A stretch of DNA of 64,000 nucleotides from the NCBI GenBank assembly GCA_032718475.1, contig JAUCBJ010006642.1:1-64000 (forward strand), in the 5' to 3' direction. Each line of letters starts with the position of its first letter. Position 1 is the first letter of the stretch. A program made the position numbers and the translations under genes. Below are positions 1 through 50,611 of the stretch, in pieces. This DNA is from Nemertoderma westbladi (lineage: Eukaryota > Animalia > Xenacoelomorpha). The notes below the pieces were generated by a model that saw only the letters and a program-made list of their open reading frames with translations, had not been told where the DNA came from and ran no database searches.

Positions 1-462
1 ACTTCCAATCAATGGCCAATGACGTCTCTTCACCCAAGTGACCAGATCAGATATATCGAGAATCACCTGTTTCCGAGTCCAGTTCCTGGAGACGCGAAGT
101 GGCAATGGAAGAAATTATTACGAGTGAAGTTAAGGGGCACTCATTAGAAGATCAAACTAAAGGTTGGCGAATAAGGGACGAATGAATAATTCTCATCATG
201 TGATATTGTGGTTAGACTAAATATTATTACTGCATCGGCCACATGGATAGGAGTTTGTGTCTCCGGGTGGCACGTATGGTACAGCAGCAGTGATTTGGCA
301 TTGCAATGCCAAAGAGTAGTATGAACAACCCTAGAAGGCTGTGGTGCCGAATGGTGATTCGAGATTTTAGATTAACTACATTTTCGTGTTCGGAAGTCAA
401 GACAACAAGACGGGATTCAGCCATCACGATAATATTTGAGTTTACATTGATGAATATGCCGT

Positions 463-3400
463 CTAGTTTGAATTAACTTTCTTCAATTTATGTTTCGAGT
501 GTTTCTGTTTCTTTAGATAATAAGTGCCGAAAAGTAGTGATTCAATTAGACGTTTTTGTAAATTATTAGATATAAAATCTTTAAGATCGCTTACAGCTCT
601 TTCTGTAAATTCAAAATAATGAAAATCAGAATTGTCGAGAAGAACTTGGAAGGAGTCGGTTACCTTTTCATCAATTAAAGTATATCCATGTATTTTCGAA
701 ATGACTTCCGGTAAAACATCCCATGCTTGATGGATGTACGGTTCTGTACCACCAATCATTCGCCAAATGTTTGATAACCCATTAAATGTTTTATAATGGC
801 AATTATCTGGTATTGATTTAGAGAATAATTCTACCATATCTTTTTGGATAAATCTCTGGTAAACATGATGTTGGTGAATGTTCCGGCACAGAAAGAGAAC
901 AAATTTTGTTTCTTCAAATGCGAAAAGTTCGGATTTTTCACAAGACATTGAATGTTGAAGGAAGCCATCTGGAAATGTTTTGCGCCAAGCTTCCAATCGT
1001 TGATCCAAAGGCGCTGATTGAGATAAATTTACAGCAGAAGTTGATAAGTCATCAACAAATTGGTTATATGGAGAATTAACCAGAAAAAAACGTTCGATTG
1101 CAGTCTTAGCATTTGGTCTCCATTTCATTGCTGTAACTATGGTGAACTTCGGACCTGGACTGAGAACTATTATGCGTATTACACCAAGCATGAAAAGTGT
1201 TTGCCGTTTTGTAATTTCAACAATATGCGCTGAATCTGTACAATGTTCACTACGAAAATAAGGTCTATATAATCCGTGTATCATGGCATCACCATAATCA
1301 TCTGCCTTTGATAAATCCGTATCTTTAAATAAAGTAATTACTTCTTTTGATACAGTTATCTCTTGACTATATTGTAATGTTCGTCCCGTTAATAATGACC
1401 GTGCAAGAACTGCTGTTTGCTTCTTTCTTTGTATTCTGTCTTGCCTTCTTGCTGCTTCCTGTTCATCAACACCTTCAAAAGTATCATGATATGTCGGTCG
1501 TCGCACATATAAGGAAATTCCCAAATACTGGATAATTTTCGGTAAATAAACTAATGGACCTCTGGTAGCGTGTAGTAAAAATCCAGAACTATGGAATACT
1601 CTCAATGAGGAATCTTTAAGACTGAATGGTGATACATTATCCAAATAGGTTCGCAAACCATCAACTAACCGCTTAGTCATCCAACGCAAACTTGCATGGT
1701 CGGGAAACTGCTCTACTGCTATTGAGAGTTCATTGCATATTGGCAAGAATGGATTATCTGTGGACTTGTTGTCAAGAAGTATTCCAGAAAGTGAAGGATG
1801 AGATTGTAATAACACCTCAATCAGTGTAGACTCTGAAGTAAATTTATCAACATGTTCTGAAAGCTTACATTTTACACAGTAGACCAACATTGGAGCCTTT
1901 CGTTGTTCACAATGCCATACAGCTATTGCCATATTTACGACACCAGGATCAATACCAATGGAACGGATTGTGTAGGAACTACTACCAGGACTAATTGCGT
2001 TAGTAGACCTAACATAAATTCCAAACCTTTCAATAATATTATCAATTCCAAACGTTACAATGAACTTATCACTATTAACTGATAAAACAGATTCCTCAGC
2101 ACGACGTTTAATGTCCATTTTAGAATTACTCAACTTCAAAAATGTCTCCAGAGAGAATGGCTCCGCAAAGAGGTTACGGCAGCTATCGGCACGAGTAAAT
2201 GCTACCTGAACAAGTTGGCTCAACAGTGATATGTTTGTTTGTACTAATTTATCTGCATTTAGATTAACATAAACTGGTTTCTCACGGTATTCTTTTCCTT
2301 GGCATTTGTGTACTGTGATTGCGTGAAGTGGCACAAAGGGGAACTGCGTTCGACTTATTCTTTCTGCAAATCGCCGTCTCTTTTTACCTGTGAGTCTTGC
2401 AGATATTGGGAATATTCGGACAAATGTAGGATTTAAAGGAAACTCGCAATCAGATATACCCTCCTCATTGAAATCTGGAATGTCAACAATGACATGGTCT
2501 GGTTGGGGATGTTCACCATTCAACACAGCAGCAGCATCACTTTCATTAAAAACGATGTGTATCACAGTTCCTTGGGTACCATTGGCTATGCGCCTTTGGA
2601 CACTGACATTATCAACAAATATAATTTTCAGGCCAACATATAATGGAATACAGTCCTCCAACATTACATCAAATTCTGATGGGCTCAATCTATTTAGATT
2701 GGTGAAAGTTGCATTATATATCGACTTGGAAATGAATAATGTTTGATCAAGTGAACAAATCTGATCAACTGATAATTTGGCATTATTAAGCATTCTCGTA
2801 ACATTGTCATACATTATACAAACTGGAAGCTCCCCCAGCGTCGCCATGCTTGGTGTGTTACCAAGTTCATTTATTGAATGAAAAACCGTCCTGTAGTCTA
2901 TTTCATCTTGCTCCCCATTCCTAATACGACTGGTTAGTTTAGCTAGCTCATCATCAGACCTGTAAACTTTCCTTAAGCAGATAACATTCGGACGCATATG
3001 AGAGGCATATAATTGATGACCATATAACGAATGAGCTTTACCTTGACGATTTCTAAGCCGAATTCTAGCACCAGGGGAAACAACTTCAGATTGCGAGGGT
3101 GCATTCCACAGTTGGCGTGATGAAACAGGTGGGAGTTGTCCCATATCTCCTACCAGTAGAAGCTTTTTGCCACCCCACAGAATGTCTGGATTACCACTGG
3201 CATGGCGTAATGATGAGTCCAACAACGCTAATGTTCCTGGTTGGCACATAGAAATTTCATCTACTATGACAAAATCAACACTTTGAACATATTTCACAAT
3301 GAGAGTTTGACGTGAAGTTACCTTGTCGGTATTCTGATCCCATTGAGTCTTGTTGTTATACAAGCCAAAAAAACCTTCAAGTGTTGCGCAATACAAATTT

Positions 3401-3555
3401 GCAGCAGCAGCTCCACTGATACCTAATAACAAGACCTTTTCACCAAGATGATAATAAATTCTCTTTATTACTTCGGTTTTACCAGAACCACCAGGTCCAT
3501 GTAAAAATATTGTCTGAGGTGTAGGCTTGTTATTGATAGTGTCATTAATCATCAA
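463..3555 (-). CDS. PIF1-family DNA helicase fused to a C-terminal RuvC-like (A22/Ydc2-type) nuclease domain (C-terminal part of RepHel)
   Basis: 1030-aa ORF. Walker A GPGGSGKT (~3475-3498), Walker B IVDEISM, WGGKKLLLVGDMGQLPPV, NGTQGTV, TQFPFVPLHAITVHKCQG. These are followed by IGIDPGVVNMA (D at 1948-1950), IAVEQ (E at 1711-1713), RKKQTAVLARSLL and KADDYGDAM (1288-1308). Confidence 0.88.
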   Translation of the reverse strand: MMINDTINNKPTPQTIFLHGPGGSGKTEVIKRIYYHLGEKVLLLGISGAAAANLYCATLEGFFGLYNNKTQWDQNTDKVTSRQTLIVKYVQSVDFVIVDEISMCQPGTLALLDSSLRHASGNPDILWGGKKLLLVGDMGQLPPVSSRQLWNAPSQSEVVSPGARIRLRNRQGKAHSLYGHQLYASHMRPNVICLRKVYRSDDELAKLTSRIRNGEQDEIDYRTVFHSINELGNTPSMATLGELPVCIMYDNVTRMLNNAKLSVDQICSLDQTLFISKSIYNATFTNLNRLSPSEFDVMLEDCIPLYVGLKIIFVDNVSVQRRIANGTQGTVIHIVFNESDAAAVLNGEHPQPDHVIVDIPDFNEEGISDCEFPLNPTFVRIFPISARLTGKKRRRFAERISRTQFPFVPLHAITVHKCQGKEYREKPVYVNLNADKLVQTNISLLSQLVQVAFTRADSCRNLFAEPFSLETFLKLSNSKMDIKRRAEESVLSVNSDKFIVTFGIDNIIERFGIYVRSTNAISPGSSSYTIRSIGIDPGVVNMAIAVWHCEQRKAPMLVYCVKCKLSEHVDKFTSESTLIEVLLQSHPSLSGILLDNKSTDNPFLPICNELSIAVEQFPDHASLRWMTKRLVDGLRTYLDNVSPFSLKDSSLRVFHSSGFLLHATRGPLVYLPKIIQYLGISLYVRRPTYHDTFEGVDEQEAARRQDRIQRKKQTAVLARSLLTGRTLQYSQEITVSKEVITLFKDTDLSKADDYGDAMIHGLYRPYFRSEHCTDSAHIVEITKRQTLFMLGVIRIIVLSPGPKFTIVTAMKWRPNAKTAIERFFLVNSPYNQFVDDLSTSAVNLSQSAPLDQRLEAWRKTFPDGFLQHSMSCEKSELFAFEETKFVLFLCRNIHQHHVYQRFIQKDMVELFSKSIPDNCHYKTFNGLSNIWRMIGGTEPYIHQAWDVLPEVISKIHGYTLIDEKVTDSFQVLLDNSDFHYFEFTERAVSDLKDFISNNLQKRLIESLLFGTYYLKKQKHSKHKLKKVNSN

Positions 3556-6500
3556 ATTGACAACAAGTTGTCCAATTTAGTATCATCCAATTTAGGCAAA
3601 TCATTGAAATTTATGGGAATCTTAGGTCCACCTTTAAATGTCTTTGATGATTTACAAAGCAATTTCCACTTTTGTTGAATTTGGGAATACAAGGGGGATT
3701 GCAAATTAATTGTTAAAAACGAATCTGCATTTCTGTCATCTAGTTCTTCTATGGCAGAACTCAAAATTCGATATGGATCCATATATGCATCAAAATCAAA
3801 TGCATCACTAAGTATACAATCAATAGAAAGTGATTCTACATTTAAATCAATCAAAGGTTCGTCTACAATATCAATAGTTTCTCCAGTTCCATCTGGCTCT
3901 TCTATGGGAATACAATTTAACTCGGATCTTATTTTGTACATTGCCTTTTTATGATCCATTTCACACCCATATGTATTTTGAAAGACACGAAATCGAAAAC
4001 AAGGGTCATCAAATGTTCCATTTATACTCCTGTGGTGAAGTAATTCCATCCATTTATTATGAAATGCCTTATAAATTAGAATTATATCTTTCTCACCATT
4101 GGATATTTGTTGTTGCAAATTCTCTGATATAAAGTAATCACTAACATTACCAGAAAATGGGATAAATGCGATACATTCTAATCTGACATTTTGTAGCAAA
4201 TTTTTAAAATGGTTATCAATGGTGTTCCACGTGAGACTATCGTCAAATAACAGGGATTCAGGACGTCCGGTGATTAAATGTGGAATGAAATGTGGGATTC
4301 TGGTATCTTTAATTCCTTTATACGTAAATTTAGATTGCTCAGTGTGAGGCTTGAAATCCACCAGCGACAGAAATTCGAAATACGTAATTTTATCAGAAGG
4401 GATGAGACCACCTGGCCAATCATCTGAACACCGTTTGACATATGCTGTCACTGACGATTTCGGAGGCAATATAAACAATTTTTTTACCTGAAAGTTTGTA
4501 ATTTCATTCGTATCAGCTTGTTCAACATTCACTATAGGTTCATCTTCTTCATTAGTTGCTACATCTTCAGATGGATTGTTCACTGATGGAGTTATTTGGC
4601 ATAAAATAGGTGCACCACTAGAACACTTTAATGGGACAATACGTGGCATGCATTTAATGACATCACTCAAGCCAAGGGCATGAAACATCAACTCCCGTCT
4701 CGACATATCTTTCGGATTGAAAACATGGGCAATAGTTAGTCTCTTAACCACACTTTGGATAGAAATATCTGGTTCGCTTTCTACAACCTCCATTAATTTT
4801 ACTACAGCATCATCAACACAAGAAAGCATACTTGTGCATTTGGAGACATATTTGAGGGTATAACGTAGCAATGCAAATGGACAACTTATAACAGTGAGAT
4901 CACTATTTGCACGCCAATACAGCTGTAGAATTCTATTAACATTATTAAGGCGAGTAAATGATTTGTGTCGACGTTTTGTCAACACATGACATTCTGTAAA
5001 TAACATTGACTCTGTTGTCTTTGCAAATCCAACTCTTGTAATATCTCTTCTAGGCTTAATACCGCCATGTCGACAACCATCCCCTTTTACATTTCCACCA
5101 CATGTCTCAGGATAGCAATTATGCATTTGCACTATTGCGGCAAGCAATGCACTCTCCTTGTTTTCTGAATTGCAGTGTTCTAAAGTATTAACTGTATCTC
5201 TCATCAGGGGATGATTTTGAGGAGTATACTTTGTGTCATCAGGAAGTTCATTCCAATCTTTCAGCAGTTTATATAAATCGATCAAATCTCCATTATCATC
5301 ACAAAAATCAGTTTGAATCAGGCTATCATACACTTCCGTCATGTATCTTTCAGCAAGATAACCAGTATTAACAATATGTATTGCCTCACTCCTAAATTCT
5401 TCAGTCATTCTTCCTTGCAACCAATATTTTCTTACAGTTCGCATTCTATGAATTAAATGAGCCAGTAGAATTAATTCGAATATGTGAGGTAACCTAGCAA
5501 GAAAGTGCCAATGCTGTACAGCACGTGTTGGACCCCATTCTACTCTTCCCCAATGCCAACTGTCTCTTGAATTGATGCTGCAAACTTTTCTGAAGAATGC
5601 ATTGGTCATAATCTCCATTTTTAAACGGAGGTATTGCTCTATAATTGCTGCGTGTTTATCAAGCAATTTATCCCAAACCTTTCGATTTATTTCAAACCAA
5701 GAGTGTTGAAATACAGCATCCAAGCCATATTCTGATAAAAATACCAGCCGCCTCACACCATAATCTGTTCGCAGATTATTATTGAATGTGATAAACACAT
5801 TTGGAAACCCTGAGTTGGTACAAACAGAATATAACTCTTGCCTCATATGTTTCCACCGTTGGGCGGAATGGGGATATCGTCTTAGATGGGCAATAAGCAT
5901 CGGTGCAACGGTTTCAGGATTGCCCATTTTAAATTTATCTAATAGTGTTTTGACATTAACTTCATCAAGTTCATTTTGTGTGTTGAGATAAAACTGTATA
6001 CTGTCCAAGGAATATGCTAAATGCATTTGGTCATAAGCAACAAAAGCATAAACAGGATCTTCAGCATATGGCCATCTTAGCTTACCATCATTGCCAAATA
6101 CTGCATATCGCAACTGGTGAGCTAGTGCTTGCTTGTGAACATTGATTCCAGCAAATTTCACATGTCCATCATCATCTTCCCTATACATAATAGATGTTAA
6201 TGAATGCTGGCCATCAGAATGTAAATCTGGAAATTGCTCCTCCAGTTTCCAATGAAAAGATGACAACTTTCCGTCCCACATATTCCTGAGATTTATCTTA
6301 ATCGGGGAACCTACCAACTCACTCTCCATAGCCTGTCGGACACTCGTCTGCAAATAACCACCTAAACTTTCATTAAGTCGATACATGCTATGCTGTGAAG
6401 CGTCTGACTGGGCATACATATCATCTTGGACTGCTCTAACTGCTGCTGGGGCAACATCAATAGTATTCACGATGTCATCTGTACACTGAACACTCAGTGT

Positions 6501-6959
6501 TTCTAATAAATCATGATTAATGGTGAATATATCTTTGTATCCTTCTCTATTGTTCAAGAGATGAATTGTCCAGGATTTGACAACATCTGACCGCACTGGA
6601 AGTTTCCGAAAACTCGAGCCATCCATCCTTTCAGACATTATTAAAACATCACATGAATGTTCGAGATGAGGTAAAACATGATTCAGTGTATTTCGAATTT
6701 TATGGCCAACAACTAAACAATGGCTTCCAAATACTTGTCTACGGTTATAATTAAACATTATACTTGTAAATGCCTGTTGTTTTGCTATAAGGCAACGTTC
6801 AGCTGGTGTGCAAAGTGGAAGCTTCCCGACATTGGCTTGAAATGTTGCTGCTGGTTCAGTTGTACTTAGAGCAATATCCCACACTAGAAGTCTTCTTACT
6901 GCGTGCTCTCCTAGAATTAGCTTGGCACCGTTTACATTCTTTAAATTTAGATGAGTCAT
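3552..6959 (-). CDS. Helitron Rep (HUH Y2 endonuclease) region, middle part of RepHel; true coding probably begins ~6855
   Basis: 1135-aa ORF. KLPLCTPAERCLIA (Helitron N-terminal conserved block), GFPNVFITFN (motif 1, ~5780-5810), WGRVEWGPTRAVQHWHFL (HUH motif 2, ~5500-5555), QMHNC..C, WRANSDL, RYTLKYVSK (motif 3, ~4838-4866). Confidence 0.85.
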   Translation of the reverse strand: MTHLNLKNVNGAKLILGEHAVRRLLVWDIALSTTEPAATFQANVGKLPLCTPAERCLIAKQQAFTSIMFNYNRRQVFGSHCLVVGHKIRNTLNHVLPHLEHSCDVLIMSERMDGSSFRKLPVRSDVVKSWTIHLLNNREGYKDIFTINHDLLETLSVQCTDDIVNTIDVAPAAVRAVQDDMYAQSDASQHSMYRLNESLGGYLQTSVRQAMESELVGSPIKINLRNMWDGKLSSFHWKLEEQFPDLHSDGQHSLTSIMYREDDDGHVKFAGINVHKQALAHQLRYAVFGNDGKLRWPYAEDPVYAFVAYDQMHLAYSLDSIQFYLNTQNELDEVNVKTLLDKFKMGNPETVAPMLIAHLRRYPHSAQRWKHMRQELYSVCTNSGFPNVFITFNNNLRTDYGVRRLVFLSEYGLDAVFQHSWFEINRKVWDKLLDKHAAIIEQYLRLKMEIMTNAFFRKVCSINSRDSWHWGRVEWGPTRAVQHWHFLARLPHIFELILLAHLIHRMRTVRKYWLQGRMTEEFRSEAIHIVNTGYLAERYMTEVYDSLIQTDFCDDNGDLIDLYKLLKDWNELPDDTKYTPQNHPLMRDTVNTLEHCNSENKESALLAAIVQMHNCYPETCGGNVKGDGCRHGGIKPRRDITRVGFAKTTESMLFTECHVLTKRRHKSFTRLNNVNRILQLYWRANSDLTVISCPFALLRYTLKYVSKCTSMLSCVDDAVVKLMEVVESEPDISIQSVVKRLTIAHVFNPKDMSRRELMFHALGLSDVIKCMPRIVPLKCSSGAPILCQITPSVNNPSEDVATNEEDEPIVNVEQADTNEITNFQVKKLFILPPKSSVTAYVKRCSDDWPGGLIPSDKITYFEFLSLVDFKPHTEQSKFTYKGIKDTRIPHFIPHLITGRPESLLFDDSLTWNTIDNHFKNLLQNVRLECIAFIPFSGNVSDYFISENLQQQISNGEKDIILIYKAFHNKWMELLHHRSINGTFDDPCFRFRVFQNTYGCEMDHKKAMYKIRSELNCIPIEEPDGTGETIDIVDEPLIDLNVESLSIDCILSDAFDFDAYMDPYRILSSAIEELDDRNADSFLTINLQSPLYSQIQQKWKLLCKSSKTFKGGPKIPINFNDLPKLDDTKLDNLLSI

Positions 6960-8581
6960 AATTTAACTCTAGATATATTTCACAACAAGTTGTACAATGT
7001 TTTAATTTCCAACCAGTAGACCAGTCCTCAACAGCCTTTCTCATAACGTATTGTACATATCGTGAATCTTGGGACCTTATTTTATCAACTTCCTTTTGCT
7101 CAGCATCATTCAAAAATTTAGTATGATCTCTGGGCCGCTGATCCCAAGGCCATAATGGAATTTGCATTTGGTTTGATTGTTGCTGTGCCTCAGGAAGAAT
7201 AACATCCTCAAAAACGCCACATTCATTTTCATTCGGATCCACATTCTGAAGTTGAATATTTATTATTTCATCGTCTCGAGGTATTCCCCAATTGTTTAGA
7301 GAATTCTTTAATTTATTAACTTCACCCTCCCGTTTGCAGAAAAATTGGCACTTTTCTGAAAATTTCATTCTATCAGTCCAGGACGCAGGAGAAGGAATTA
7401 AGGAGGAACCAGCTATATTTTTCTTCTTCACTTTATTGGATACACTACAATCAGATATAGAAGCGGACGCACTGGAGATGCCATCCTTTTGACATTGCAC
7501 CAATGGAGATGCGTTCGGTTGTCTGAAACGTACACGTGCATAGTAAGCTTTAATTCGTTCAGCTGATCTCACCACAGGATCTAACCGCTTCTTACGCATA
7601 GATTCCCGGTTGGCTAAACGAACAGCAGGATCTAATCGTTTCGTACGTTTTGATAATCGTTCAGCCGATCTAACTTCAGGATCTAACCGCTTTGTACGTT
7701 TTGATAATCGTTCAGCCGATCTAACTTCAGGATCTAACCGTTTTGTACGTTTTGATAATCGTTCAGCCGATCTAACTTCAGGATCTAACCGTTTTGTACG
7801 TTTTGATAATCGTTCAGCCGATCTAACTTCAGGATCTAACCGTTTTGTATGTTTTGATAATCGTTCAGCCGATCTAACTTCAGGATCTAACCGTTTCGTA
7901 TGTTTTGATAATCGTTCAGCCAATCTAACTTCAGGATCCAACCGTTGCGTACGTTTTGATAATCGTTCAGAAGATCTAACTTCAGGATCTAACCGTTTCT
8001 TCCGCATAGATTCCCGGTTGGCTAAACGAACAGCAGGATCTAATCGTTTCGTACGTTTTGATAATCGTTCAACCGATCTAACTTCAGGATCTAACCGCTT
8101 TGTACGTTTTGATAATCGTTCAGCCGATCTAACTTCAGGATCTAACCGTTTTGTATGTTTTGATAATCGTTCAGCCGATCTAACTTCAGGATCTAACCGT
8201 TGCGTACGTTTTGATAATCGTTCAGAAGATCTAACTTCAGGATCTAACCGTTTCTTCCGCATAGATTCCCGGTTGGCTAAACGAACAGCAGGATCTAATC
8301 GTTTCGTACGTTTTGATAATCGTTCAGCCGATCTAACTTCAGGATCTAACCGCTTTGTACGTTTTGATAATCGTTCAGCCGATCTAACTTCAGGATCTAA
8401 CCGTTTCGTACTTTTTGATAAACGCTCAGTAGATTTCACAGCAGGATCGAATCGCCTTTTTTGCATTTTCTCCCGAGCTTCAATACGTAAGGAATGAATT
8501 TTGCATAACTTGGAGCGCACTTGATGGGTTTTAAGTCCACGTCCCGAATTAAACGGCCGTTGGCAAGTATCACACATAAAT
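6856..8581 (-). CDS. Helitron N-terminal region: C2HC zinc finger, basic 17-aa repeat array, Cys cluster
   Basis: 573-aa ORF. CDTCQRPFNSGRGLKTHQVRSKLC, ~18 repeats of RLDPEVRSAERLSKRTK, then CTTCCE...CKRC, typical of the cluster preceding Helitron Rep. A splice-acceptor-like ttttgttttag lies immediately upstream (AG at 8583-8582). Confidence 0.75.
7555..8460 (-). repeat. Coding tandem repeat, 51-bp unit, ~18 copies
   Basis: Unit ttcaggatctaaccgttttgtacgttttgataatcgttcagccgatctaac; a variant unit (RLDPAVRLANRESMRKK) recurs three times. Confidence 0.95.
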
Positions 8582-10055
8582 CTAAAACAAAATAAATATA
8601 AATAATAATAGTATATGAATTATGAAGCAGTGATAGGTGACTGCAATTGAACTGTTACACCACGCCCTGGAATATAATGTCTTAATTAAATTCGATATAG
8701 ATAGGACTTACTTCTTACTTATAAAATAATTAATCGCGCATTATTTAGGCCTATTATATTTTAATACAATTTACTACACCCTTAAGATTTATTATAATTT
8801 ATATATTTTATGCGATTTGTGCTTAATATAGTATGTATTATATGAACCTTGATGGTTTGAATAAAATAAAATAATAATAATAATTCAGTAGTTTGGTCCC
8901 CCCACCCAAAATAAAAATATTTCTACAAATCGTAATGAGATTGCATGAAATTTAAAACAGAGATAGTTACATCTCCGAGCTCCGACCACTTACTGGGTGA
9001 GCCAGAATTTTTATTTTTGCTTTCATTCTTTAGCTACAAGTGTTTAAAAAAGTGTCTCCGTCGATATTGAACCACTTACACCGCAGTTATTCTTCAACTT
9101 CATAGTGAATAATGTGTAATAAAATCTGATGAATTTCATTGCAAAATAGCTATATTCGTTTTATAAAGTCGCATGCATTTGCTTCCGTTGCAGGCATTTT
9201 GTCTTTTTAAGAAATACAAAATGTAATGCCTATATAATATTACTAGTACGAGGGTATTCATACATAAATAACATGATGTAGAATATGGTGTATTTTATTA
9301 AATATTTTAATTAATTGTCTGCAGCGGAAGCAAATGCATGAAATTTACGAATGCCCATCTCAGTTATTTCTCAACGAAATTCAAATCTTATTACGTATTT
9401 AGAATCACTGCACGGTACCAACGAATCGCTATAAGATTGAAGAATAACTGCAGTCGACCTGTGGAATATCGACGGAAACTTAAAGGCAACAGCGTAACAG
9501 AGAGAGGAGCCTTCCGGTTCCGGTCGCCTCCACTGTTTGGTGTTTCACACGTTCACCGGTAACTTTTACTCTGAAAGTCAAGATCCTAACATAGATAAGG
9601 TAATCTCTATCGGTTAATTCGCCCTCGAGCGGTAGACAGGAGAACTTCAGATGGCTCTTGGTATTACGCTGGAACGAGTTAGGCAGAGACCTTTCTAACA
9701 AGCTATAGTAAGCGAGATTTCATAGAGATGGGTTCGAGCCAAGGTGTACCTTGGTTCGAGCGTATAGCTGATTACAGACAGATAGTTAATTCATATAGAC
9801 TAGAAAGCCTTCTAGTGTACAAGCTTGTTCAACATTTCAATTTATTAATGAACAAAGGCAGATCTACTTGGCATGCTACTACAACATACGAATTATGCTG
9901 TAAGTTATCTGCCAAAATATCAGCTCCAAAGGATTAAACAATAAATTGGGAGAAGGTTTTTCTTTTCAAAAATTTCGCCTCTAAACGGCCAACTGGTGAA
10001 TTTATGACCATTTTAAAATCCATTTTACCCATTTTAAAATCATATTTTTGCATGG

Positions 10056-10262
10056 GTCAGAATTGTCCCGGTCCCAATTATCCGGTTTCTTAATGGAACT
10101 GGACAATTGGGACCTAGGGCAATTGGGCCCCGGACAATTGGGACCCGGACAATTAGGACCTGGACAATTCGGACCCATTGTTTAAAATAATATTTTTTGT
10201 ACGAGTCCGAATTGTCCGGGTCAGAATTGTCCAGGTCCCAATTGTCCGGGGCCGAATTGTCC
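10056..10262. repeat. Short inverted arrays of ~15-20-bp units (ggacaattgggaccc / gtccgaattgtcc), MITE-like
   Basis: ggacaatt.ggacc units at 10100-10176 face gtccgaattgtcc units at 10205-10262. Confidence 0.65.
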
Positions 10263-10375
10263 TATATCCAAAATCCAACTGCAGAGTGGTCTGCCTCCTT
10301 CCAAATACGAAGCTTATGGTGTGGTGTAGAGCTCTTCCAAGTATTTAGCTGGAAAGGATTAAAAATAATAAAATC

Positions 10376-11370
10376 ATTCCCAACTTCCACCACACTCCCA
10401 ACTTCCGTCCCACTCCCAACTCCCGTCCCATTCCCAACTTCCACCACACTCCCAACTCCCGTCCCATTCCCAACTTCCACCACACTCCCAACTCCCGTCC
10501 CATTCCCAACTTCCACCACACTCCCAACTTCTGTCCCAATCCCAACTCCCGTCCCACTCCCAACTCCCGTCACATTCCCAACTTCCACCACACTCCCAAC
10601 TCCCGTCCCATTCCCAACTTCCACCACACTCCCAACTCCCGTCCCATTCCCAACTTCCACTACACTCCCAACTCCCGTCCCATTCCCAACTTCCACCACA
10701 CTCCCAACTCCCGTCCCATTCCAAACTTCCACCACACTCCCAACTTCCGTCCCACTCCCAACTTCCGTCCCACTCCCAACTCCCATCCCATTCCCAACTT
10801 CCACCACACTCCCAACTCCCGCCCCATTCCCAACTTCCACCACACCCCCAACTCCCGCCCCATTCCCAACTTCCACCACACTCCCAACTCCCGTCCCATT
10901 CCCAACTTCCACCACACTCCCAACTCCCGTCCCATTCCCAACTCCCGTCCCATCCCCAACTTCCGTCCCACTCCCAACTCCCGTCCCACTCCCAACTCCC
11001 GTCCCATTCCCAACTTCCACCACACTCCCAACTCCCGTCCCATTCCCAACTTCCACCACACTCCCAACTCCCGTCCCATTCCTAACTTCCGTCCCACTCC
11101 CAACTCCTGTCCCACTCCCAACTCCCGTCGCATTCCCAACTTCCACCATACTCCCAACTCCCGTCCCATTCCCAACTTCCGTCCCACTCCCAACTCCCTC
11201 CCACTCCCAACTCCCGTCCCATTCCCAACTCCCGTCCCACTCCCAACTCCCGTCCCATTCCCAACTTCCGTCCCACTCCCAACTCCCGTCCCATTCCCAA
11301 CTTCCACCACAATCCTAACTCCCGTCCCATTCCCAACTTCCGTCCCACTCCCAACTCCCGTCCCCAACTC
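10376..11370. repeat. C-rich minisatellite, 18-bp units forming a 36-bp higher-order repeat
   Basis: Alternating cccaacttccaccacact / cccaactcccgtcccatt units over ~1 kb; open frames on both strands. Confidence 0.95.
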
Positions 11371-12059
11371 CACAGTTTTACTTATGTTTGAGGCCTGACC
11401 AACTAACCCTAACCAAAATAACAAACCAAATATCCCATAAAAGCTAAGACAGCAAGGTGTGGCCCACAATAGACTTCGTAGTGGCAGCTATGGCAGACAG
11501 TCAAGTTACAGTATAATACTACCAGTACGGTAGATGAAACTGTTAGTACCTGAAAGTGCATTGAACCAACTTCACAGAAACATGAAGAAAGTAAAGTAAC
11601 CAACCTTAGTGGTGAATCTTGTACAGCTTCCGCATCCATAGTAATAGTAGCTGGACTCTGGACAGTGGAGTACAGAAGATGGACTTGTTTCTTCAGAATC
11701 TTGTATGACTTAAAGGTACCGGTACATCTTGAAATAAATATCCTTTGCTTTTATGTAATTCGCACATATCTAAATGTAAAAAATAAAGGAATATATAAAC
11801 TCAGAGACTTTCACAATATACATGTCGGATGTCGCCGGTGGTACTTAAACTTGATTGATGGATACAGATAGAACTAAGCAACCTACTGCCCTTCACCCTA
11901 CAGCCCAATGAAACATAAACTGATAATAAACATTTCAGAAGCACTGCAATTATATGGTACGGTAACCGATGAAGCTTCCTAAAAATTATATTGTATGCCA
12001 TTTGATTTGATACCGGTAATAATAGTAAGTATAAAGGCATTTAGATTGAATGTTACATT

Positions 12060-12368
12060 TAAAAAAAGAAACCGGAGGCGGAGGCCGGCCCCATTTTTAT
12101 ACAGGTAGCTGCTAGGTCATATAGGTAGAGGTGGGCGCTACTCATGTATCCCAGTATCCCTAGTTTTGTTCTCCTCAGTACCGTAATTCAACTGGTACTC
12201 ATTTTCTCGACGCCATTCAGCCATTGGATGAAAGGCTGAGTGGACCCTAGCACTGGCGGGGTTCGAACCTCGAACCTACATCCTACAACCAGCAATAGAT
12301 AGTGAGCCTGAAGCCTGGCACGCACAGTGGCACATGGCGCTCAACAACTGAGCTACCCCGCGCCCGCC
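12060..12368 (-). mobile_element. tRNA-derived SINE with conserved central domain
   Basis: Minus strand: A box TAGCTCAGTTG, B box GGTTCGAACCC, then ACTCAGCCTTTCATCC...GTCGAGAAAATGAGTACCAG, which resembles a core found in widespread animal SINEs. Confidence 0.75.
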
Positions 12369-13723
12369 TTCAATAAAAAATCTACCAATAAATATTAGGG
12401 CCTACATTTACTTAGGCCTAATGATTTATTTTTTAATTTAATCTAATTAATCACCTTAGGCCTATTTATTTATTTTAAATTTTGGTTACCGGTCCGGTAC
12501 CTACCGGTAATCGAGTGTAATTATAAATAAATAAATTTAATGTACGGCGGAATAAATACATTGAAATATATTTATTACAGCAGTATTATACAGTAGGCTA
12601 CATTGTAGGCCTAGTTAAGAAAAAGAATATTGTCAAAGATATTCGCATTGTATGCATAAGTAGGATAGGCCAGGCCTGTATCACAGTTAAAGTAAATAAA
12701 AAAAATAACTATGAAACAATATAATAATTAACAGTCCAATTCAACAAAAATAAGTGTACCAGTAACAACAATAAATCACAGTATAACTCAATATGCTTCC
12801 AACTGCCCAATACATACCTCAACTTTCAAGCCAGCCCATCAAGAGGGGCATATTCCAGTAGCAGTCTTCAAATCCACATGTAGAAGAGAGTAGGCCAAGA
12901 ACTATCTTAGAACAGTTACAATCAGATAACTATACCGCTACCGCGGTAGGAGTTATAGGATAACGCTCAACAGGATAAGCTAATAAGTTCAGAAGTTATA
13001 AGATAATAAATAATTATAAATGAGACAATAAAATATCACACAAATTACCAATCCAACTGCCCTATATATATACAGACACCGGCTCCTCTACCTCAAGCTA
13101 GGCCGTCCACCCTCCCCAATAAGGCACTGTGAATGGCTAATAATCTTACCACAGTATTAATGAGAGGCCGGTTTAACTAATGCAATTAATTGGCAGATTG
13201 GGTTTTAAACATAGAAATATCTCAACTGAACAACTAACACTAAAGACCACAACAACTGGACATGCTGGGAACACTACACTACACACCTTGATCACATGCT
13301 TATATAATAGCTTGTACGGACAGGCCGGTTTTCATTGGGGGGTCCATAGGGTGGAGACTGGTAGATTGGATTGGGATGTCAGATTGGAATGTGGTGTGGA
13401 GTGTTAGGAATGTATATGAATCAGCAGTCCGGTAGAGGTTTACATATTTAAAAGAACTGCCGAAATATAAGTTATATGAGTATTATTTGTTATGATTTCT
13501 ACCATTATATTCTTCCACGCAAAGTTCCTAGTCCTATAGGTCCAATCAAAACATTCTGTATATTGCCAATGGTTCAACGTAATCAAAGAGACGACGCTAG
13601 ACACGCACGCAGCCAATCCCAGTGAAAAATGCACGCAAATAAGTAGTCATAAGTGATAATTCTAGAAAGGCTTTTCTGCGAATGTAGGCTATTGTGTAAT
13701 TCATTTCAGTACCGGTCTGCCTA

Positions 13724-28029: not shown

Positions 28030-31000
28030 ATCTTCTCAATCAAAAACTTTCAGAATCTCCGATACCATTCTAGCTATTACCTTTGGGTTATTATTTAACA
28101 TAAAATTACATAGTCTACTCGCACCTTTTATATATAGATATTTTGTGCGTACATGATTTGTTAAGGATCAGTAGAACAATACATGTTCCTCGGTTTGTAT
28201 TGTCTTCTTGTCGCAAGAACACACTCGATTTTCGCATGCTGTTCTAGACCATTTACCTAACTCTATCCTTAAACGGTGTGATAAAAAGCTTAGCCGAAAT
28301 CGTGAAAACTCAATTCGCTGATAGTCTGGTATATAAACTCTCTAAAACATGCTGTAAATTTTATGTACCTCTAAATTAGGATTAATATCTAGATATGTAA
28401 CATCTTTACTGTGTGACAATGAAGCCTTGGCCCGTATATCCGTCTTCATTTTCGTTTTACTCTCTGCAATAAAATTATTTCTGGAAGATAATAACTCTTG
28501 TATGTACACGAAACCCGGTGTATTTACCTCTTTACATAAATTATACACGTAAAATATAGGGTCGTCCCGATTCCAGTTTAACATTACGTTACGCATAGAC
28601 TTACAATATATTAGTTTTTATCATAGCGCAAACATCTGGCATACCTAATTCTACAAATCAAAGCACGTTGGTAGTTAGTTATTCTAATATTCAGTAAAAT
28701 TTTAACCAATTTTATTATAATAGCACTGATATCACTTTTGTTTATATTACCTATCCAAGTATCGCTGGAATATAATATTGACGCTAAAATAGCGCTATCC
28801 AAAGCTGCTTTTTTCATTCTAAAAGGGATATACTTATTCACAGCATAAAATTTAGAAAATTTACGGACATGTTTAGCGCATTCCTGTACATGTAAACGTA
28901 GGTAAGATTAAACCATCTTGAATAAAAATTGCACCTAAATAAACGTAATGCTCAACATTATTTATCGTTATACCGGTAAATTGAAATGGTTCTTTGTCTC
29001 CTATGTTCCATTAACAACCATGAATTTTGTTTTTTTGTTATTTATTGTCATTTCATGTATTTTACAAAAGTCTAATAATATTTCTATCTTCCGTGCACAA
29101 TCTTTTCTACTTACTGCAAAATTCACAGTATCATCCAAAAACAAAATTGAATGAAGTGCACCAAGATAAGTATTTGACGCACATAATTCCTTTAGAACTA
29201 TTATAAGGTCTTCTATGAAGAATGTAAATAAAAACAGGCTGCTGGGGGCACCCTGGCGTACTCCTGCATTCGTTTCTATATCAATACAATTAATCCTAAT
29301 ATATGTGATTCTATATAAAGTACGAATCGCATTAACCATATTCTGACAGCATCCCAATGCTAATCGTTTCGATATTAATTTTAATCTAGGTACCCTATCG
29401 TAGGCCTTGGAAAAATCTACAATGACCATAAATAATTTAACCTTTTTAAACTTTACATAATCGCACAATAGTCGTAAGCTCATAATATGCTCAAAGCATT
29501 ATCTTTTCTTCTGTCCACCAGCTGAGGCGTATTGGGTCTCGCCCATCTACGCAAATGAGAGTCTATTATGTAATCATAAACGTTTGCTAAGGTATCAGAA
29601 ACGGATATACCCCTATAATTGTCACATGCATTAGAATTACCCTTCTTAAACAGAATGGTTAATTTACTGAAGATCCACTGTCTAGGTAAGGATGATGAGA
29701 AAAATACCAAGTTTAGTATAGATGTAATATATATAATAATAGCAATGGGTAAACATTTTAACAGGTTTGGTTAGATACCAGACGCGCTTTTATTCGCTTT
29801 TAATGCATTGAGGGCTTCGTTGGTTTCCCACAGCATAATAGGGTCGGGTCATCGCAAATGGGTATGTAGGGAGCCTCTGTGGTATCGATTAAATCTAGAC
29901 TCGTTGCTTTGGGATCATATAATAATTTTCTAAAGTGTTCTGCAAATTGCTCGTTTGACGGTTTACCATCTTTTTCATCATTAGATATCTCTCCTCTCCA
30001 ATTGATAGACTTCCAAATATTCTTTGGATCATTTTCCTCGAGCAATCTCTCCCAATGATTTAATTCGATGTCTATAAAGTTATTTGGATGAATTTGCGGC
30101 TATTTTACGACTAAAGTGTTGACTGCTTCAAGAAAGGCCTCAGTTAGATTCTCGATGGCTGTATCTACGTCAATATCCACTATATCTGGTATGGCAATTA
30201 AACTCCACAGACTGTTGCGGAATGAAGCTCTATCTAATGTTTCATATCGTTTCTAGTATTTCCTTTGCATGTTTTATTATAGCAATCGGTTCCTTAAAAA
30301 GAAACTCCAAGGTCGCGTGAATGGGTAATGGTAATAAGTGTATCCCAATCGGAAACCAATACCAAATCTGTTAGGTCGAATTCTATTTCTAAGGGTGCGT
30401 GATTATATGGGAGGTTCAAGTTCTGATTAACCGAGACGTGTGTTCTAGTAATGGCCGGTTTACTAACCAAACAAAGATCGATCTGACTTACCCATAACGA
30501 TTTGCGCTGAAAAGTTAGATTGTCCGGTAAAGGTGGTACTCGGTTAACAATTGTTAAATCGCATTCATTGCAAACACTCATGATGTCTGAACCATGTGAG
30601 TTTTTCGGTCGGTACACATGAGCGTTGAAGTCACCAAACAAAACTTTATGATTAGCATGTGATGACATTGAGAATGCCTGCACGTCGCCCCGAGATCTCT
30701 CGCTGTAATAGGGTGAATCCCTTGGCTCAATGTAAATCCCGCAAAGAACTAGATCTTTACCTAACTTAACTGATATGATACCGGGAACAGAAGTTTCAAT
30801 ATCATGGATCGCATCCTGTATCCGGTTGTTTACTAACAGGCCAATACTACCGCGTTTATCATTGTTGTTTACATTACTGTAATACCTAAATCCTCGGATG
30901 GAAAAGCAACAGTTTGACTTCACTTCATATAACCAAATTAAATCAAAGTTTACTGCATAACCAAACGCGTTTGAGTTGCTGAATTTATCGCAAAGTCCAT

Positions 31001-31030
31001 TTATGTTCCAAGACAAATATTTACAGTATG
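28030..31030 (-). mobile_element. Degraded APE-RT LINE (RTEX/Crack-like)
   Basis: SWNINGL, GDFNA, SQIDLCL (APE); NYRGIS, DFSKAYD, GVRQG, FLDD (RT); C-terminal HRLRIELGKW...CSC...EEHVLF Zn motif. Frameshifted. Confidence 0.88.
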
Positions 31031-46564: not shown

Positions 46565-49500
46565 CTATTCCACAGCGCTGATTGAACCCCGAACACAAAG
46601 GGCATTCCCCCTCACTATGGCTATCCCGATGCGTTGCTTCAGCCACAAGCTCTCGCGTGGGTCTCCTGACTCCGCTATGAGTCTTCGGCCAAGATCTTTT
46701 AACACGCTGATGGTGGATGGACCGAATACTCCTGTGGTCTCGAAGGCCAGGGGTTCGAATTGGTACTGCTGACCCAAATTGCGGTATTTCACGCGCTTTA
46801 GCTCCTCCGCTGCTGCTGATGCTGAGGATGGCTCAATGGCAGAGCGAATAATGTGGGATGGGGCAAAGGTATCCACACATGTAGCATCCCATACCAGGCA
46901 CCGGCCTTTCGAGAAGGGGTAGATGGTCATACCATCAGGACGTTTCCCATCTCCCCTGTCCAACCCAGTAGGTTCCAGGACAGATGGTAGACCAGCTCTG
47001 CTCAGTGAACGTTTCAGCACATCGTTGAGAGCTGCATGACGTGGGAACCTACCCATGCTGTTTCGGCAGGACAGTGCATGGTGCCCAAGAATATCCACTT
47101 CCTTGCCACACTTGCAGGTGTGTTTATGGCAGATAGGTGCACCAACTCTCTGTGCTATACCAATTCGAAGAGCTTCCCGATCCAAATTCGACCCTAAAGA
47201 TGGAATAGGGGTCGCATGAAGCCAAAGCCCACTCTCCACTTGCGCTGCTGCAGCCAGGCGTGCTGTTTCGACCTGATCCGCTTTGGCAAACAGGTCTCTC
47301 TGTGTTATAGTCGCAGAGATAGTGTCCCAGGCTTTCTGGTTATTCCTGGCTGCCCCACTGGGTTCCTCAACTGAAGAGAACTTCTCCCTCCATGCCTTGA
47401 CGGCTCCTGCCAAATCACACGATGGCTCCAGTCCAAATGTGTTAGAGAGGACGGAGTTAACGAGGATATCGGTGGAATGAAGAGAGGAAATATAACTAGG
47501 CAGTGCCAGATCTTCCAACTTACGGATCCCAAGTCCCCCGAGACTGACTGGTAGTGATCCCTGTGTAATGGATTTTGCCTGAAAGTTAACATTGGTGATA
47601 CTAGAAAGGGCATCTTGGACAACTGTATCAAATTCCTGCAAGTCACCAGTGTTGTTGAATGTGGGTGATGTGCGCAGAGTGTACTGTAGCCGGGGGACTG
47701 CCAGACAATTCTTGAGTAAGGTGAAGCCTTGATGTGCATCAACATGTACCAGCCGATCAACCATCACCTCGAGAGACTTGAGCTTTGATTGGATAGCTGG
47801 TTCAATAGCATCCCGTGTAAGGGGAGCTCCTAGAAGGACCTGGTCCACCTTGTTTAGGACCCTAATATTAGGGAGGAGCTGACTGAACTTGTGGATTGTC
47901 TCAGTAGCGGCTTCTGGTGTATGGTTGAGTAGTATCAATTCACACTTTGCATCGTTAACAATTAGACCAATCTTCGCTAGCTCTGGTATTATTGCCACGA
48001 CATCCGAAAGAACACTCTCTGTAGTACCACCTACCGTACCGTCGTCAAGATACCAGATATTCAGCTCTGAACCAACAAGTTTGGTGACAGGCTCCTCTCC
48101 CACCGCGAAGAGAAGAGGGCCACTAGGATCACCCTGTTGCATACCAGTGGCCGATTCGATGATGTGATCTCCGAAAATAAGGACTGTAGGTGTGGAATAA
48201 GCCTGCCACACAAGGGGGTAAATACTTGGCAAACGATCACGAGCTGCCTTCAGGAAAACATCACGACGCATACTGTTAAATGCATTCTTCATGTCGATTT
48301 TCAGTACCACCTTCTGTTCCTTAGTGCCATTGATATATTGCCGGGTCGCATGCACAGCTGCCTCACAACCACCCTTGGTTCCATAACCTAGCTGTGTGGG
48401 CCTTAGTTCAGCTCCAAGAACTTCTGAGAGGGGTTTAATGCCAGTTTTTGTCACCAAGCGCCTGAATGTATTGCCGACAGCAATTGGACGCAGACCTCCC
48501 CCCTTTTTGTTAAGGGCGCAGAGACAGGCCCCAAAGAAGATTGGCACAGCAAATTTAGGGGTTTCCCCACGGTGTGCTGTATTTGCGAGCCTAGTCAATT
48601 CACTGAGCAGCTTGTCACCAGCAGCTCCAGTTCCTCTGCTGACCATGTCACGGAGATGACCTGGGCGAAGGCCATCGGGGCCAGCAGCAGAAGAAAGGGG
48701 GAATGACTGGATACTGGCAAGGACGTCCTCCTTCGTAGTGATAACTGGACCTGCTAGTGTGTCATCTGGGGGTGGTGGGAGATCAAGATCAAGTGGGGCA
48801 GGTGGGTGCTTCTCCCTGAGGGCATTGATTGTATCTTCACTGTGGTCTGCAAAACCCTCCTGTGATGTGATAATCCTTACAGCGCCTCGGACATCGCCAT
48901 CCATGAACTTGGCTGAAACTCGCTTGCGAATGAGTTCTGCTTCATCTAGGTTTGATGGTTTGTGCTGCTGATGTGTAGTGTGCAGAGGAACACGCGGATT
49001 GGGAAGGCAGGGTGATGCCATATAGTCTCTTATTTGCTGCTTGACTTTTGATGTTAGTGAGGGTTGCAAATGGTCGTTTGTAGCTGGAATCGGCTTTGCT
49101 AACGCCCCAAACGAGAATGCTAGGAGCCGGGCCCAGGTTATTGGCACAGGGTTGTCAATTGCTTCTTTGAGCAAAGGGGCCAGTGCGTCTGCAGCCATGA
49201 TTCTAGCCCCTTTAGGAATCTTTGCCAACACAGGAATGGATTGCTTCAGCATGGCAATATAAGATGCAAGATTTTCCAAGTATTTACTATAGCTGGGGTC
49301 AACATCTGGTAGTATTGTCCGAGGTCGATCAAGGCAAGTTCCACAGAACCAGTGTGGTAGGGATTCTGAATCCTTCTTCCTGAGGCCGACACATGAGAGG
49401 TGATACCAAACTGAACAGTTAGCACAATGGACTATCTGCTTTCTCATGTTTCCTTCACTGCATGTGGGACAAACTAATTGCTCGTCTGACTGAGAATTCT

Positions 49501-50611
49501 CCTCCGAATTGCAATATTCTCTACACTGAACGTCAGCCAACTTGCCTGCTCCAGGACACAAGGGACCTCCAGAATTCTCTTTGTGCCTGCGAAGGTGACC
49601 ATTACCATTTACCAGAATATCTTTCTTGCATACAGAGCATCTTGAACGGGCTTGGACACCTATACCTTGCGTGCTGGAAGTCGAATTGTCTGGATTTACA
49701 TCACCAATGAGGCAATCTTCTGAAATGTTAAAACCTTGGGTTTGTGTGGTGCATGGTGCTTTCCCCTCCAAACCACCGTGCTGGGTTGATCCTGGTGTGC
49801 CTGCCTGCGGATTTGTAAAAGGATTCATTCCTTTTGAGCTGGGATTAGGTGCATTGCTGAGAGGAAATGCCGTAATAGGGTTAGCAAACACTATTGTGGC
49901 CAAGTTTAGACGGAGAGACTGGATCGACCTGTCATTGACACCTGATAGTGGGAAGGATGTCTGATAGCACTCATTTGGGTGTTCAACACTAAACTTTGCG
50001 AAGTGGCAGACGTAGATTGCACACTGATGAGAGTCATTAAACTGCAGCTTGGGGGTATGGGGAAGTAATCTAATACCGGAGTGATCTTCATTGTTTAGTA
50101 CTGCTAATGAAACGGCCCAGTCCCTTAAGTCGTGGGTCAGCTTTTCGTGGCTACCACCCAAGGAGTCGAAGCAACGAATATAACCAGCTTTTGGGTGGAA
50201 TGTTAGAAGGATCCAGTGGTTGTTGTTTATATTTACTGGGAAGAGTAAGGTATCATAGTCGAAGATGTTAGTTTTAGCGATCCATTTGGAAATTCTAAAG
50301 GGACCATCTGGAGAATTGAGGACATCGAAAAAACGGCAGTTGAAGGGGCGTGATCGACCATAGGACCTCTCACAGAAGAATCGCAGGAGACCTTCCAAAA
50401 CATTATCGGTCAACCAATTTTTACCAGAGATAGATTCAGTGTCGCGCTTTACAAGAGGGATCCCACATAAAATATTCCCTGGGCTTTCATCGGGTGCCAG
50501 ATCCCTGACTAGTTGACTTTCAGTAAGATCATCTATGTGGATATTAGGTGTTAGTTGGCTTTCAGTTAGATCGATACATGGAACTGGAAGCTGAAATTTG
50601 GGCCTGGCCAT
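46565..50611 (-). CDS. CRE-like non-LTR retrotransposon polyprotein: Ulp1/SENP-like cysteine protease, Zn finger, PHD finger, reverse transcriptase, CCHC knuckle, restriction-like endonuclease
   Basis: Uninterrupted 1348-aa ORF. Protease: WLTDNV, PVNINNNHWIL, FDSL, QFNDSHQC. PHD: CPTC/CANC/HLSC/WFCGTC. RT: LRPIAVG, KIDMKNAFN, QQGDP, YLDD. Knuckle: CKC...HHALSC. RLE: RH, KRPDG, WDATCVD, KRVKY. Confidence 0.92.
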   Translation of the reverse strand: MARPKFQLPVPCIDLTESQLTPNIHIDDLTESQLVRDLAPDESPGNILCGIPLVKRDTESISGKNWLTDNVLEGLLRFFCERSYGRSRPFNCRFFDVLNSPDGPFRISKWIAKTNIFDYDTLLFPVNINNNHWILLTFHPKAGYIRCFDSLGGSHEKLTHDLRDWAVSLAVLNNEDHSGIRLLPHTPKLQFNDSHQCAIYVCHFAKFSVEHPNECYQTSFPLSGVNDRSIQSLRLNLATIVFANPITAFPLSNAPNPSSKGMNPFTNPQAGTPGSTQHGGLEGKAPCTTQTQGFNISEDCLIGDVNPDNSTSSTQGIGVQARSRCSVCKKDILVNGNGHLRRHKENSGGPLCPGAGKLADVQCREYCNSEENSQSDEQLVCPTCSEGNMRKQIVHCANCSVWYHLSCVGLRKKDSESLPHWFCGTCLDRPRTILPDVDPSYSKYLENLASYIAMLKQSIPVLAKIPKGARIMAADALAPLLKEAIDNPVPITWARLLAFSFGALAKPIPATNDHLQPSLTSKVKQQIRDYMASPCLPNPRVPLHTTHQQHKPSNLDEAELIRKRVSAKFMDGDVRGAVRIITSQEGFADHSEDTINALREKHPPAPLDLDLPPPPDDTLAGPVITTKEDVLASIQSFPLSSAAGPDGLRPGHLRDMVSRGTGAAGDKLLSELTRLANTAHRGETPKFAVPIFFGACLCALNKKGGGLRPIAVGNTFRRLVTKTGIKPLSEVLGAELRPTQLGYGTKGGCEAAVHATRQYINGTKEQKVVLKIDMKNAFNSMRRDVFLKAARDRLPSIYPLVWQAYSTPTVLIFGDHIIESATGMQQGDPSGPLLFAVGEEPVTKLVGSELNIWYLDDGTVGGTTESVLSDVVAIIPELAKIGLIVNDAKCELILLNHTPEAATETIHKFSQLLPNIRVLNKVDQVLLGAPLTRDAIEPAIQSKLKSLEVMVDRLVHVDAHQGFTLLKNCLAVPRLQYTLRTSPTFNNTGDLQEFDTVVQDALSSITNVNFQAKSITQGSLPVSLGGLGIRKLEDLALPSYISSLHSTDILVNSVLSNTFGLEPSCDLAGAVKAWREKFSSVEEPSGAARNNQKAWDTISATITQRDLFAKADQVETARLAAAAQVESGLWLHATPIPSLGSNLDREALRIGIAQRVGAPICHKHTCKCGKEVDILGHHALSCRNSMGRFPRHAALNDVLKRSLSRAGLPSVLEPTGLDRGDGKRPDGMTIYPFSKGRCLVWDATCVDTFAPSHIIRSAIEPSSASAAAEELKRVKYRNLGQQYQFEPLAFETTGVFGPSTISVLKDLGRRLIAESGDPRESLWLKQRIGIAIVRGNALCVRGSISAVE

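Follow-up and report, generated by a model that had tools for sequence, protein, structure and literature searches.

The window, a 64,000-nt stretch of DNA from Nemertoderma westbladi, is eukaryotic and rich in repeats. At its left end, the minus strand carries three open reading frames (8577-6856, 6959-3552 and 3576-463), the last of which, P0001 (1037 codons from stop to stop), encodes two domains of ~230 aa each at the tail of the protein. Together the three ORFs are a Helitron RepHel transposase, with a two-tyrosine HUH Rep followed by a Pif1 helicase, in one frame in the contigs of sequencing runs X1-X3. The N-terminal part (6856-8581, minus strand, as are all features of the transposase) has a Cys/His zinc-finger-like motif, a basic repeat array of in-frame 51-nt units encoding a 17-aa repeat (~7560-8470) and a second Cys cluster. 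The Rep part (3552-6959) contains a DUF6570-like stretch (6821-6525; 23.4 bits, E 9e-05, just under the Pfam cut-off of 24.3) and a Helitron_like_N match (6011-5499; 35 bits, cut-off 28.9), and a pattern search located the HUH motif HWH (5513-5505) and the two-tyrosine motif YTLKY (4862-4848). For the Pif1-family helicase (2188-3564; Pfam PIF1 58.5 bits, cut-off 25.9), five helicase motifs were detected by pattern search, and the region matched Helraiser 7lcc at E 2.3e-08. It shares a frame with domain 1 (1258-1968), a linker of ~26 aa with one predicted helix (1180-1257) and domain 2 (490-1179).

In the window, the coding region is broken by frameshifts between the helicase and Rep (3572-3578) and between Rep and the N-terminal part (6879-6881). 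We compared the window with contigs from X1, X2 and X3, which represent two samples from two studies. At the first site the contigs of all three runs are 5 nt shorter and at the second 2 nt longer, keeping the frame at both, so the breaks are assembly errors or a private allele. Joined as in X1-X3, the frame runs for 2704 codons from 8577 to 463, and none of eight other single-letter differences checked in the coding region creates a stop. Two 5´ introns with GT-AG ends on the minus strand, a long, repeat-filled one (8582-11604, CT..AC on the plus strand) and a shorter one (11770-12817), correspond to joints from 8581 to 11605 and from 11769 to 12818 found in contigs of a further run, X4. Exon 1 (12818-13224) has stops in all three frames and is likely 5´ untranslated, and exon 2 (11605-11769) has an in-frame stop and then, at 11639, an ATG in frame with the long ORF. 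X4 is tentatively labelled "DNA?" but is probably RNA, since both joints have GT-AG ends on the minus strand and none of the other runs compared shows them. Its contigs cover 1-866 with none over 867-7870, and the spliced joints concern the 5´ exons. We also noted high-copy repeats at 8850-11400 in the long intron, together with a foldback built of 15-nt units (10045-10272) and a minisatellite with an 18/36-nt period (~10375-11370).

The element is probably an HLE2-like Helitron. Like HLE2 elements, Helentrons in particular, it has Rep and then a Pif1 helicase within a single long ORF, an extra nuclease in the transposase and, just below the Pfam cut-off, a DUF6570-like stretch before Rep; DUF6570 is called an HLE2 marker in the HELIANO study (PMC11417382). 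The extra nuclease of Helentrons is an AP endonuclease, described as lying within the transposase and as having an undetermined function (PMC8788227), whereas that of the Helitron studied here is a doubled RuvC-type domain; Pfam gave no Exo_endo_phos match in any of the three ORFs that make up the transposase. The 3´ end of the element falls beyond window position 1 and its 5´ end upstream of 13224; the element ends were not found, and there was no notable hairpin near 13200-13520. The X1 contig spanning both 5´ exons stops at 13400, with no hairpin found nearby, and contigs from X1, X2, X3 and X4 all extend ~932-937 nt beyond position 1; these stops may be the ends of the element.

Domain 1 (~235 aa) is predicted to belong to the resolvase-clade RNase H-like folds, as an A22/RuvC-like nuclease domain. 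Its acids D543, E622, D760 and D763 (P0001 numbering; codon starts 1950, 1713, 1299 and 1290) are accompanied by N548 and K757, and all six residues are invariant in every row covering them (3/3 or 4/4). In fowlpox resolvase (Fpr), D7, E60, D132 and D135 are reported as catalytic and N12 and K129 as needed for cleavage, and the local spacing of the D/E/D/D set with its flanking N and K in domain 1 matches that described for Fpr (PMC6962361). VIA-align gave Z 11.4 against fowlpox resolvase 6p7b on model residues 18-258 (rmsd 3.3, 141 aligned) and, for domain 1, Z 10.2 against TEFM chain 5ola_B. In the Atlas, the best clusters for domain 1 have Pox_A22 in 14-56% of their members (score 0.89-0.90). 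BFVD gave 28 matches with E no higher than 0.001, resolvases of Pithovirus and medusavirus among them. Pfam gave no match at threshold to Pox_A22, Ydc2-catalyt or RuvC for domain 1 or any of the four A3 members, the comparison with PHROG gave a weak RuvC-like match (E 0.42), and a tblastn search of phage records with domain 1 returned nothing significant. Domain 1 thus shares its predicted fold and its D/E/D/D, N and K residues with the A22 resolvases (fowlpox Fpr 6p7a/6p7b, canarypox 5e6f; Pox_A22). Those enzymes, however, are free symmetric homodimers of ~150 aa, while domain 1 is longer, lies behind a helicase and is followed by an apparently dead second domain.

Domain 2 is predicted, from the two-domain model and from conservation, to have a RuvC/Ydc2-like fold and to be catalytically dead. 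At the four catalytic positions it has S806, R898, R1009 and E1012. The first Asp is Ser in all five rows and the Glu is Arg or Lys in all five (register from the profile self-comparison); the last Asp is Glu in 4/4 rows (register from the global alignment), and the residue three positions before it is Arg in 4/4 (register extended without gaps). With one acid of four kept and two positions charge-reversed, metal-dependent cutting by domain 2 is unlikely, and the residues make binding of the DNA backbone plausible. The presence of 29 invariant columns at 25-35% identity indicates that the domain is under selection. A sequence-only reading of this DNA had proposed an active domain followed by a dead duplicate. 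The intact D/E/D/D set of domain 1 and the predicted loss of activity in domain 2 agree with this, with one correction: domain 2 retains an active-site acid, the conserved Glu at the last-Asp position.

The fold of domain 2 comes from one model, the two-domain model obtained with AlphaFold2 on alignment A1 (6 sequences, no templates). This model has a mean pLDDT of 59.7 and a pTM of 0.43, with cores at 70-86 and pLDDT below 50 at model residues 252-278, in the linker. Domain 1 is modelled with strands at 17-24, 29-38 and 44-52, a helix at 63-82, a strand at 97-104, a helix at 109-129, a strand at 140-143 and a last helix at 239-249; domain 2 has strands at 281-287, 292-300 and 306-315, a helix at 338-358, a strand at 373-379, a helix at 388-400, a strand at 407-412 and a last helix at 485-510. 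Both halves therefore run through three strands, a helix, a strand, a helix, a strand and a final helix in the same order. VIA-align of 997 Foldseek candidates placed Ydc2 first and fowlpox resolvase second, with TEFM chains matching either half (Z 10.1-10.2) and RuvC-fold nucleases that form one domain of a larger protein (terminase nuclease, Cas9, Cas12) at Z 8-10. For domain 2 (model residues 278-512), Ydc2 1kcf gave Z 11.5 (rmsd 4.1, 179 aligned) and TEFM 5ol8_A and 5ola_A gave Z 10.1-10.4, and a Foldseek-free search of 48,161 chains again ranked Ydc2 first (Z 11.0, rmsd 4.7, 182 aligned), with TEFM (Z 10.4) also at the top; Spt6 was likewise among the best matches. Ydc2 (1kcf) and TEFM (5ola, 5ol8) are the best structural matches of domain 2, at Z 10.1-11.5 and 10-12% identity; each chain of these mitochondrial proteins carries a single RuvC fold, whereas the Helitron tail is predicted to have two. 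The model thus bears out the proposal of two tandem RuvC/A22/Ydc2-like folds at the end of a rolling-circle transposase, each half reaching Z 10-11.5 on its own, and the outcome named in advance as refuting, an unrelated fold for the last ~240 aa, did not occur, as domain 2 matches Ydc2. Of the packing anticipated along with the two RNase H-like folds, as in a resolvase dimer, the model makes no prediction (pTM 0.43). No significant match was found with phmmer or hmmsearch against PDB sequences.

Two-domain ASKHA enzymes held the top Foldseek ranks for the whole model (E 7e-04 to 3e-03, rmsd mostly 12-23). We set this identity aside as unspecific, arising from the pairing of two RNase H-like domains, because VIA-align ranks the resolvases higher and the motifs of domain 1 are those of resolvases. 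We also noted a 423-aa "Holliday junction resolvase" from Pithovirus LCPAC101 (A0A481Z3B7, BFVD rank 23), for which 501 model columns were aligned at rmsd 30; it is about twice as long as the other Pithovirus resolvases among the listed matches and may therefore also be a tandem pair.

Whether domain 2 is a repeat of domain 1 was examined at several levels. The four motifs on which the sequence-only reading was built lie in one minus-strand frame where it had placed them: IRSIGIDPGVVNMAIAVW (1968-1915) and KADDYGDAMIHGLY (1308-1267) in the first half, and IRIIVLSPGPKFTIVTAMKW (1179-1120), with Ser at the position of the first Asp, and QKRLIESLLFGTY (558-520) in the second, with spacings of 220 aa in domain 1 and 207 aa in domain 2. 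Both halves have I-R-x4-[D/S]-P-G at the start and G-[L/T]-Y at the end. In 5000 shuffles, the first motif alone was found in 5.5%, the second alone in 87%, and both in order and 180-250 aa apart in 0.4%, in a test that was chosen post hoc. BLASTP of half against half gave no match, the best blastn match between the halves was 17 nt (E 0.07), and in 2000 shuffles the local alignment score was reached by 14.9% and the global score by 2%. Self-comparison of the A1 profile aligned model residues 273-397 with 10-120 across 111 columns at P=0.13; the alignment is in register and pairs strands with strands and helices with helices. For A3 against domain 2, P was 0.19 across 12 columns. The self-alignment that had been suggested as a check therefore gives the expected register without significance. 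A repeat at the level of sequence is at the edge of chance, while the repeat of the fold across the two halves is clear in the model.

Relatives of the tail are few. A phmmer search of 1.84 billion representatives (E up to 0.001) found five proteins, each a single-member cluster on a contig of 1.1-2.0 kb. P0002 and P0003 extend over the two domains, P0004 and P0006 over the stretch where they join, and P0005 has domain 2 only, such that parts of both domains are present in one chain in four of the five. Identity to the query is 43-55% for domain 1 (three rows of more than 100 positions) and 25-35% for domain 2 (five rows). P0003 begins with 24 residues that can be aligned to the tail following helicase motif VI, a weak sign that it may also derive from a helicase fusion. 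The word-index protein search found no relative with a single sequence, found P0003 alone with A1 and, as weak evidence, found no full-length fused relative when proteins 985-2810 aa long were covered. When A3 was used for locus searches, contigs from metagenomes, viruses and prokaryotes gave no relative; searches with the helicase or Rep gave none in viral contigs and one short Pif1-like match in metagenomes.

We regard as real the tail architecture that the model predicts, an A22-like domain with an intact catalytic set followed by a conserved RuvC-fold domain without one. We propose, at somewhat under an even chance, that this intramolecular pair works as a branch nickase that cuts one strand of a transposition intermediate. 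RuvC-family resolvases are textbook symmetric dimers. Here, both domains would likely pack as resolvase subunits do in their dimer, pairing via their second main helices as in poxvirus resolvase. The dead half, its former metal site now basic, would grip the opposite DNA arm and the live half would cut once beside the branch, since one half of the proposed single-chain dimer is dead. The most likely site would be the target, or the fork or flap left by one-strand transfer from a double-stranded donor, and a single cut would spare the host chromosome a break in both strands. The pair would occupy the slot where Helentrons have their AP endonuclease. We also suggest, at a slightly lower chance, that a Helitron lineage captured the resolvase of a large DNA virus, duplicated it and killed one copy, giving rise to a single-chain, asymmetric, junction-directed RuvC nickase that would nick the target or resolve the branch during rolling-circle transposition.

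Several published observations bear on this proposal. Poxvirus resolvase is described as a homodimer formed via helix αB that binds junctions, Y structures, bulges and loops (PMC6962361). Helitron transposases have been described as monomeric (PMC10288648, citing Kosek 2021), which would favour a single-chain dimer, as a transposase that works as a monomer but requires a dimeric surface to bind junctions would gain from having both halves in one chain. Helraiser is reported to move one strand from double-stranded donors via a fork-like intermediate (PMC5876387), indicating that branched transposition intermediates exist. The match of either half alone to the RuvC clade, with TEFM as a shared target, is also consistent with the nickase. 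Packing is the weakest step of the proposal; the model does not predict it, and the low pTM and mean pLDDT, the low-confidence linker and the six-sequence alignment all count against it. In addition, RuvC-fold nucleases that are one domain of a larger protein score nearly as high, so that a single cut does not call for a dead partner, and the link of the relatives to Helitrons comes solely from the first 24 residues of P0003. The lack of significant sequence similarity between the halves, the lack of a Pfam match at threshold for either domain and the suggestion from HELIANO that extra domains are dispensable also count against the proposal.

Other explanations of the tail were weighed against the nickase. 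Domain 2 could be a RuvC-fold accessory that binds DNA or protein, with domain 1 cutting alone or dimerising with domain 1 of a second transposase. We consider this unlikely, though a serious alternative, as TEFM and Spt6, non-cutting RuvC-fold domains, are among the best matches of domain 2, and TEFM is described as a RuvC-like protein without junction-resolving activity (PMC3105396). The low pTM and the second main helix, which has invariant L, V, G, L and L in domain 1 and a different polar pattern in domain 2, point in the same direction. Such an accessory is harder to reconcile with the similar length of the two domains and their junction through a 26-aa linker in four of the five relatives, or with conservation in domain 2 that sits exactly on the old active-site positions. 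This conservation, landing where an active site would be, also argues against the RuvC fold of domain 2 being an artefact of modelling from a shallow alignment of an otherwise unrelated domain. The single-sequence fold of domain 2 reached a mean pLDDT of only 34.7, and domain 2 has no usable match in the Atlas, no Pfam family at threshold and no PDB sequence match. An artefact nevertheless seems highly improbable given the core pLDDT of 70-86 without templates and the first rank among 48,161 chains over 182 residues, at a Z of 11.0 where the best background match is typically 7-8.

The remaining alternatives concern the origin and the role of the pair. An independently captured Ydc2/TEFM-like gene fused behind a viral A22-like gene, an origin compatible with either mechanism, would account for the different top structural matches of the halves (poxvirus resolvase for domain 1, Ydc2 for domain 2), for half-against-half profile P values of 0.13 to 0.19 and for the lack of similarity at the DNA level. 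We find it improbable in view of the motifs shared at the start and end of the halves and of the best off-diagonal profile alignment, which is in register; moreover, low-confidence stretches of domain 1 (model residues 143-223) may depress its score against Ydc2. More improbable again is that the nuclease pair is cargo or has a host role, as a domesticated, spliced, low-copy DNA repair or replication gene, and is dispensable for transposition. This would fit the spliced 5´ exons in X4, the near-identical sequence in two other samples, the missing element ends and the finding of no second copy of positions 1-7500 within window positions 13501-64000. It is opposed by the fact that the pair is fused in frame to a transposase whose HUH, two-tyrosine and helicase motifs are intact, and by the X1 contig depth of 86-121 over the coding parts versus 26-49 over unique flanks, which hints weakly at more than one copy, depth not being copy number.

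A pairing of an active nuclease with an inactive paralogue that cuts one strand of branched DNA is known from XPF-ERCC1 and MUS81-EME1, host repair enzymes of the ERCC4-family fold made up of two separate chains. The Helitron pair resembles them in combining a live and an inactive partner and differs in its RuvC fold and single chain; if the nickase proposal is true, it would be a single-polypeptide RuvC-family counterpart of XPF-ERCC1 and would show that the symmetry of RuvC dimers can be broken to yield a structure-selective nickase. It would also be the second independent recruitment of a nuclease to the slot of the Helentron endonuclease. The presence in this slot of a second, unrelated nuclease, one whose family recognises branched DNA, suggests that the substrate is a branched intermediate, an idea that is testable with a 500-aa fragment.

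A Helitron with a live-plus-dead pair of the RuvC type is apparently undescribed. HELIANO lists 20 extra domains in Helitrons from 404 genomes, with no RuvC-type domain in the section that names them, and suggests that such domains, being patchy, are not essential for transposition; RuvC, A22 and Ydc2 have no occurrence in its main text, nor do six such terms in one supplementary file (PMC11417382). Pfam misses the module, and Pfam-based surveys of Helitrons would therefore not have listed it. In the accessible text of the Helentron paper, RuvC and resolvase do not occur (PMC8788227), and that of a Paramecium Helitron paper has no RuvC-type terms (PMC13085455). RuvC, Ydc2 and A22 are placed in one clade, with no tandem form mentioned in the portion of the source covered (PMC3985635). 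Titles and abstract openings of literature on Helitrons with resolvase, RuvC or Holliday junction, a set with subscription journals and Repbase reports mostly outside it, gave no such architecture, and neither did those on tandem or single-chain resolvases; judged from the same parts, the RuvC matches in the Helitron literature concern TnpB/Fanzor.

Other elements are present in the window. On the minus strand, a 240-aa ORF (30294-31016), located 17 kb from the Helitron exons, has an AP-endonuclease-like domain (Exo_endo_phos_2) and is likely a LINE fragment. A 1348-aa ORF (46565-50611, minus strand) with a Ulp1 protease (Peptidase_C48), a PHD finger and a reverse transcriptase by Pfam is a non-LTR retrotransposon, which we take to resemble the Ulp1-bearing NeSL-type elements.
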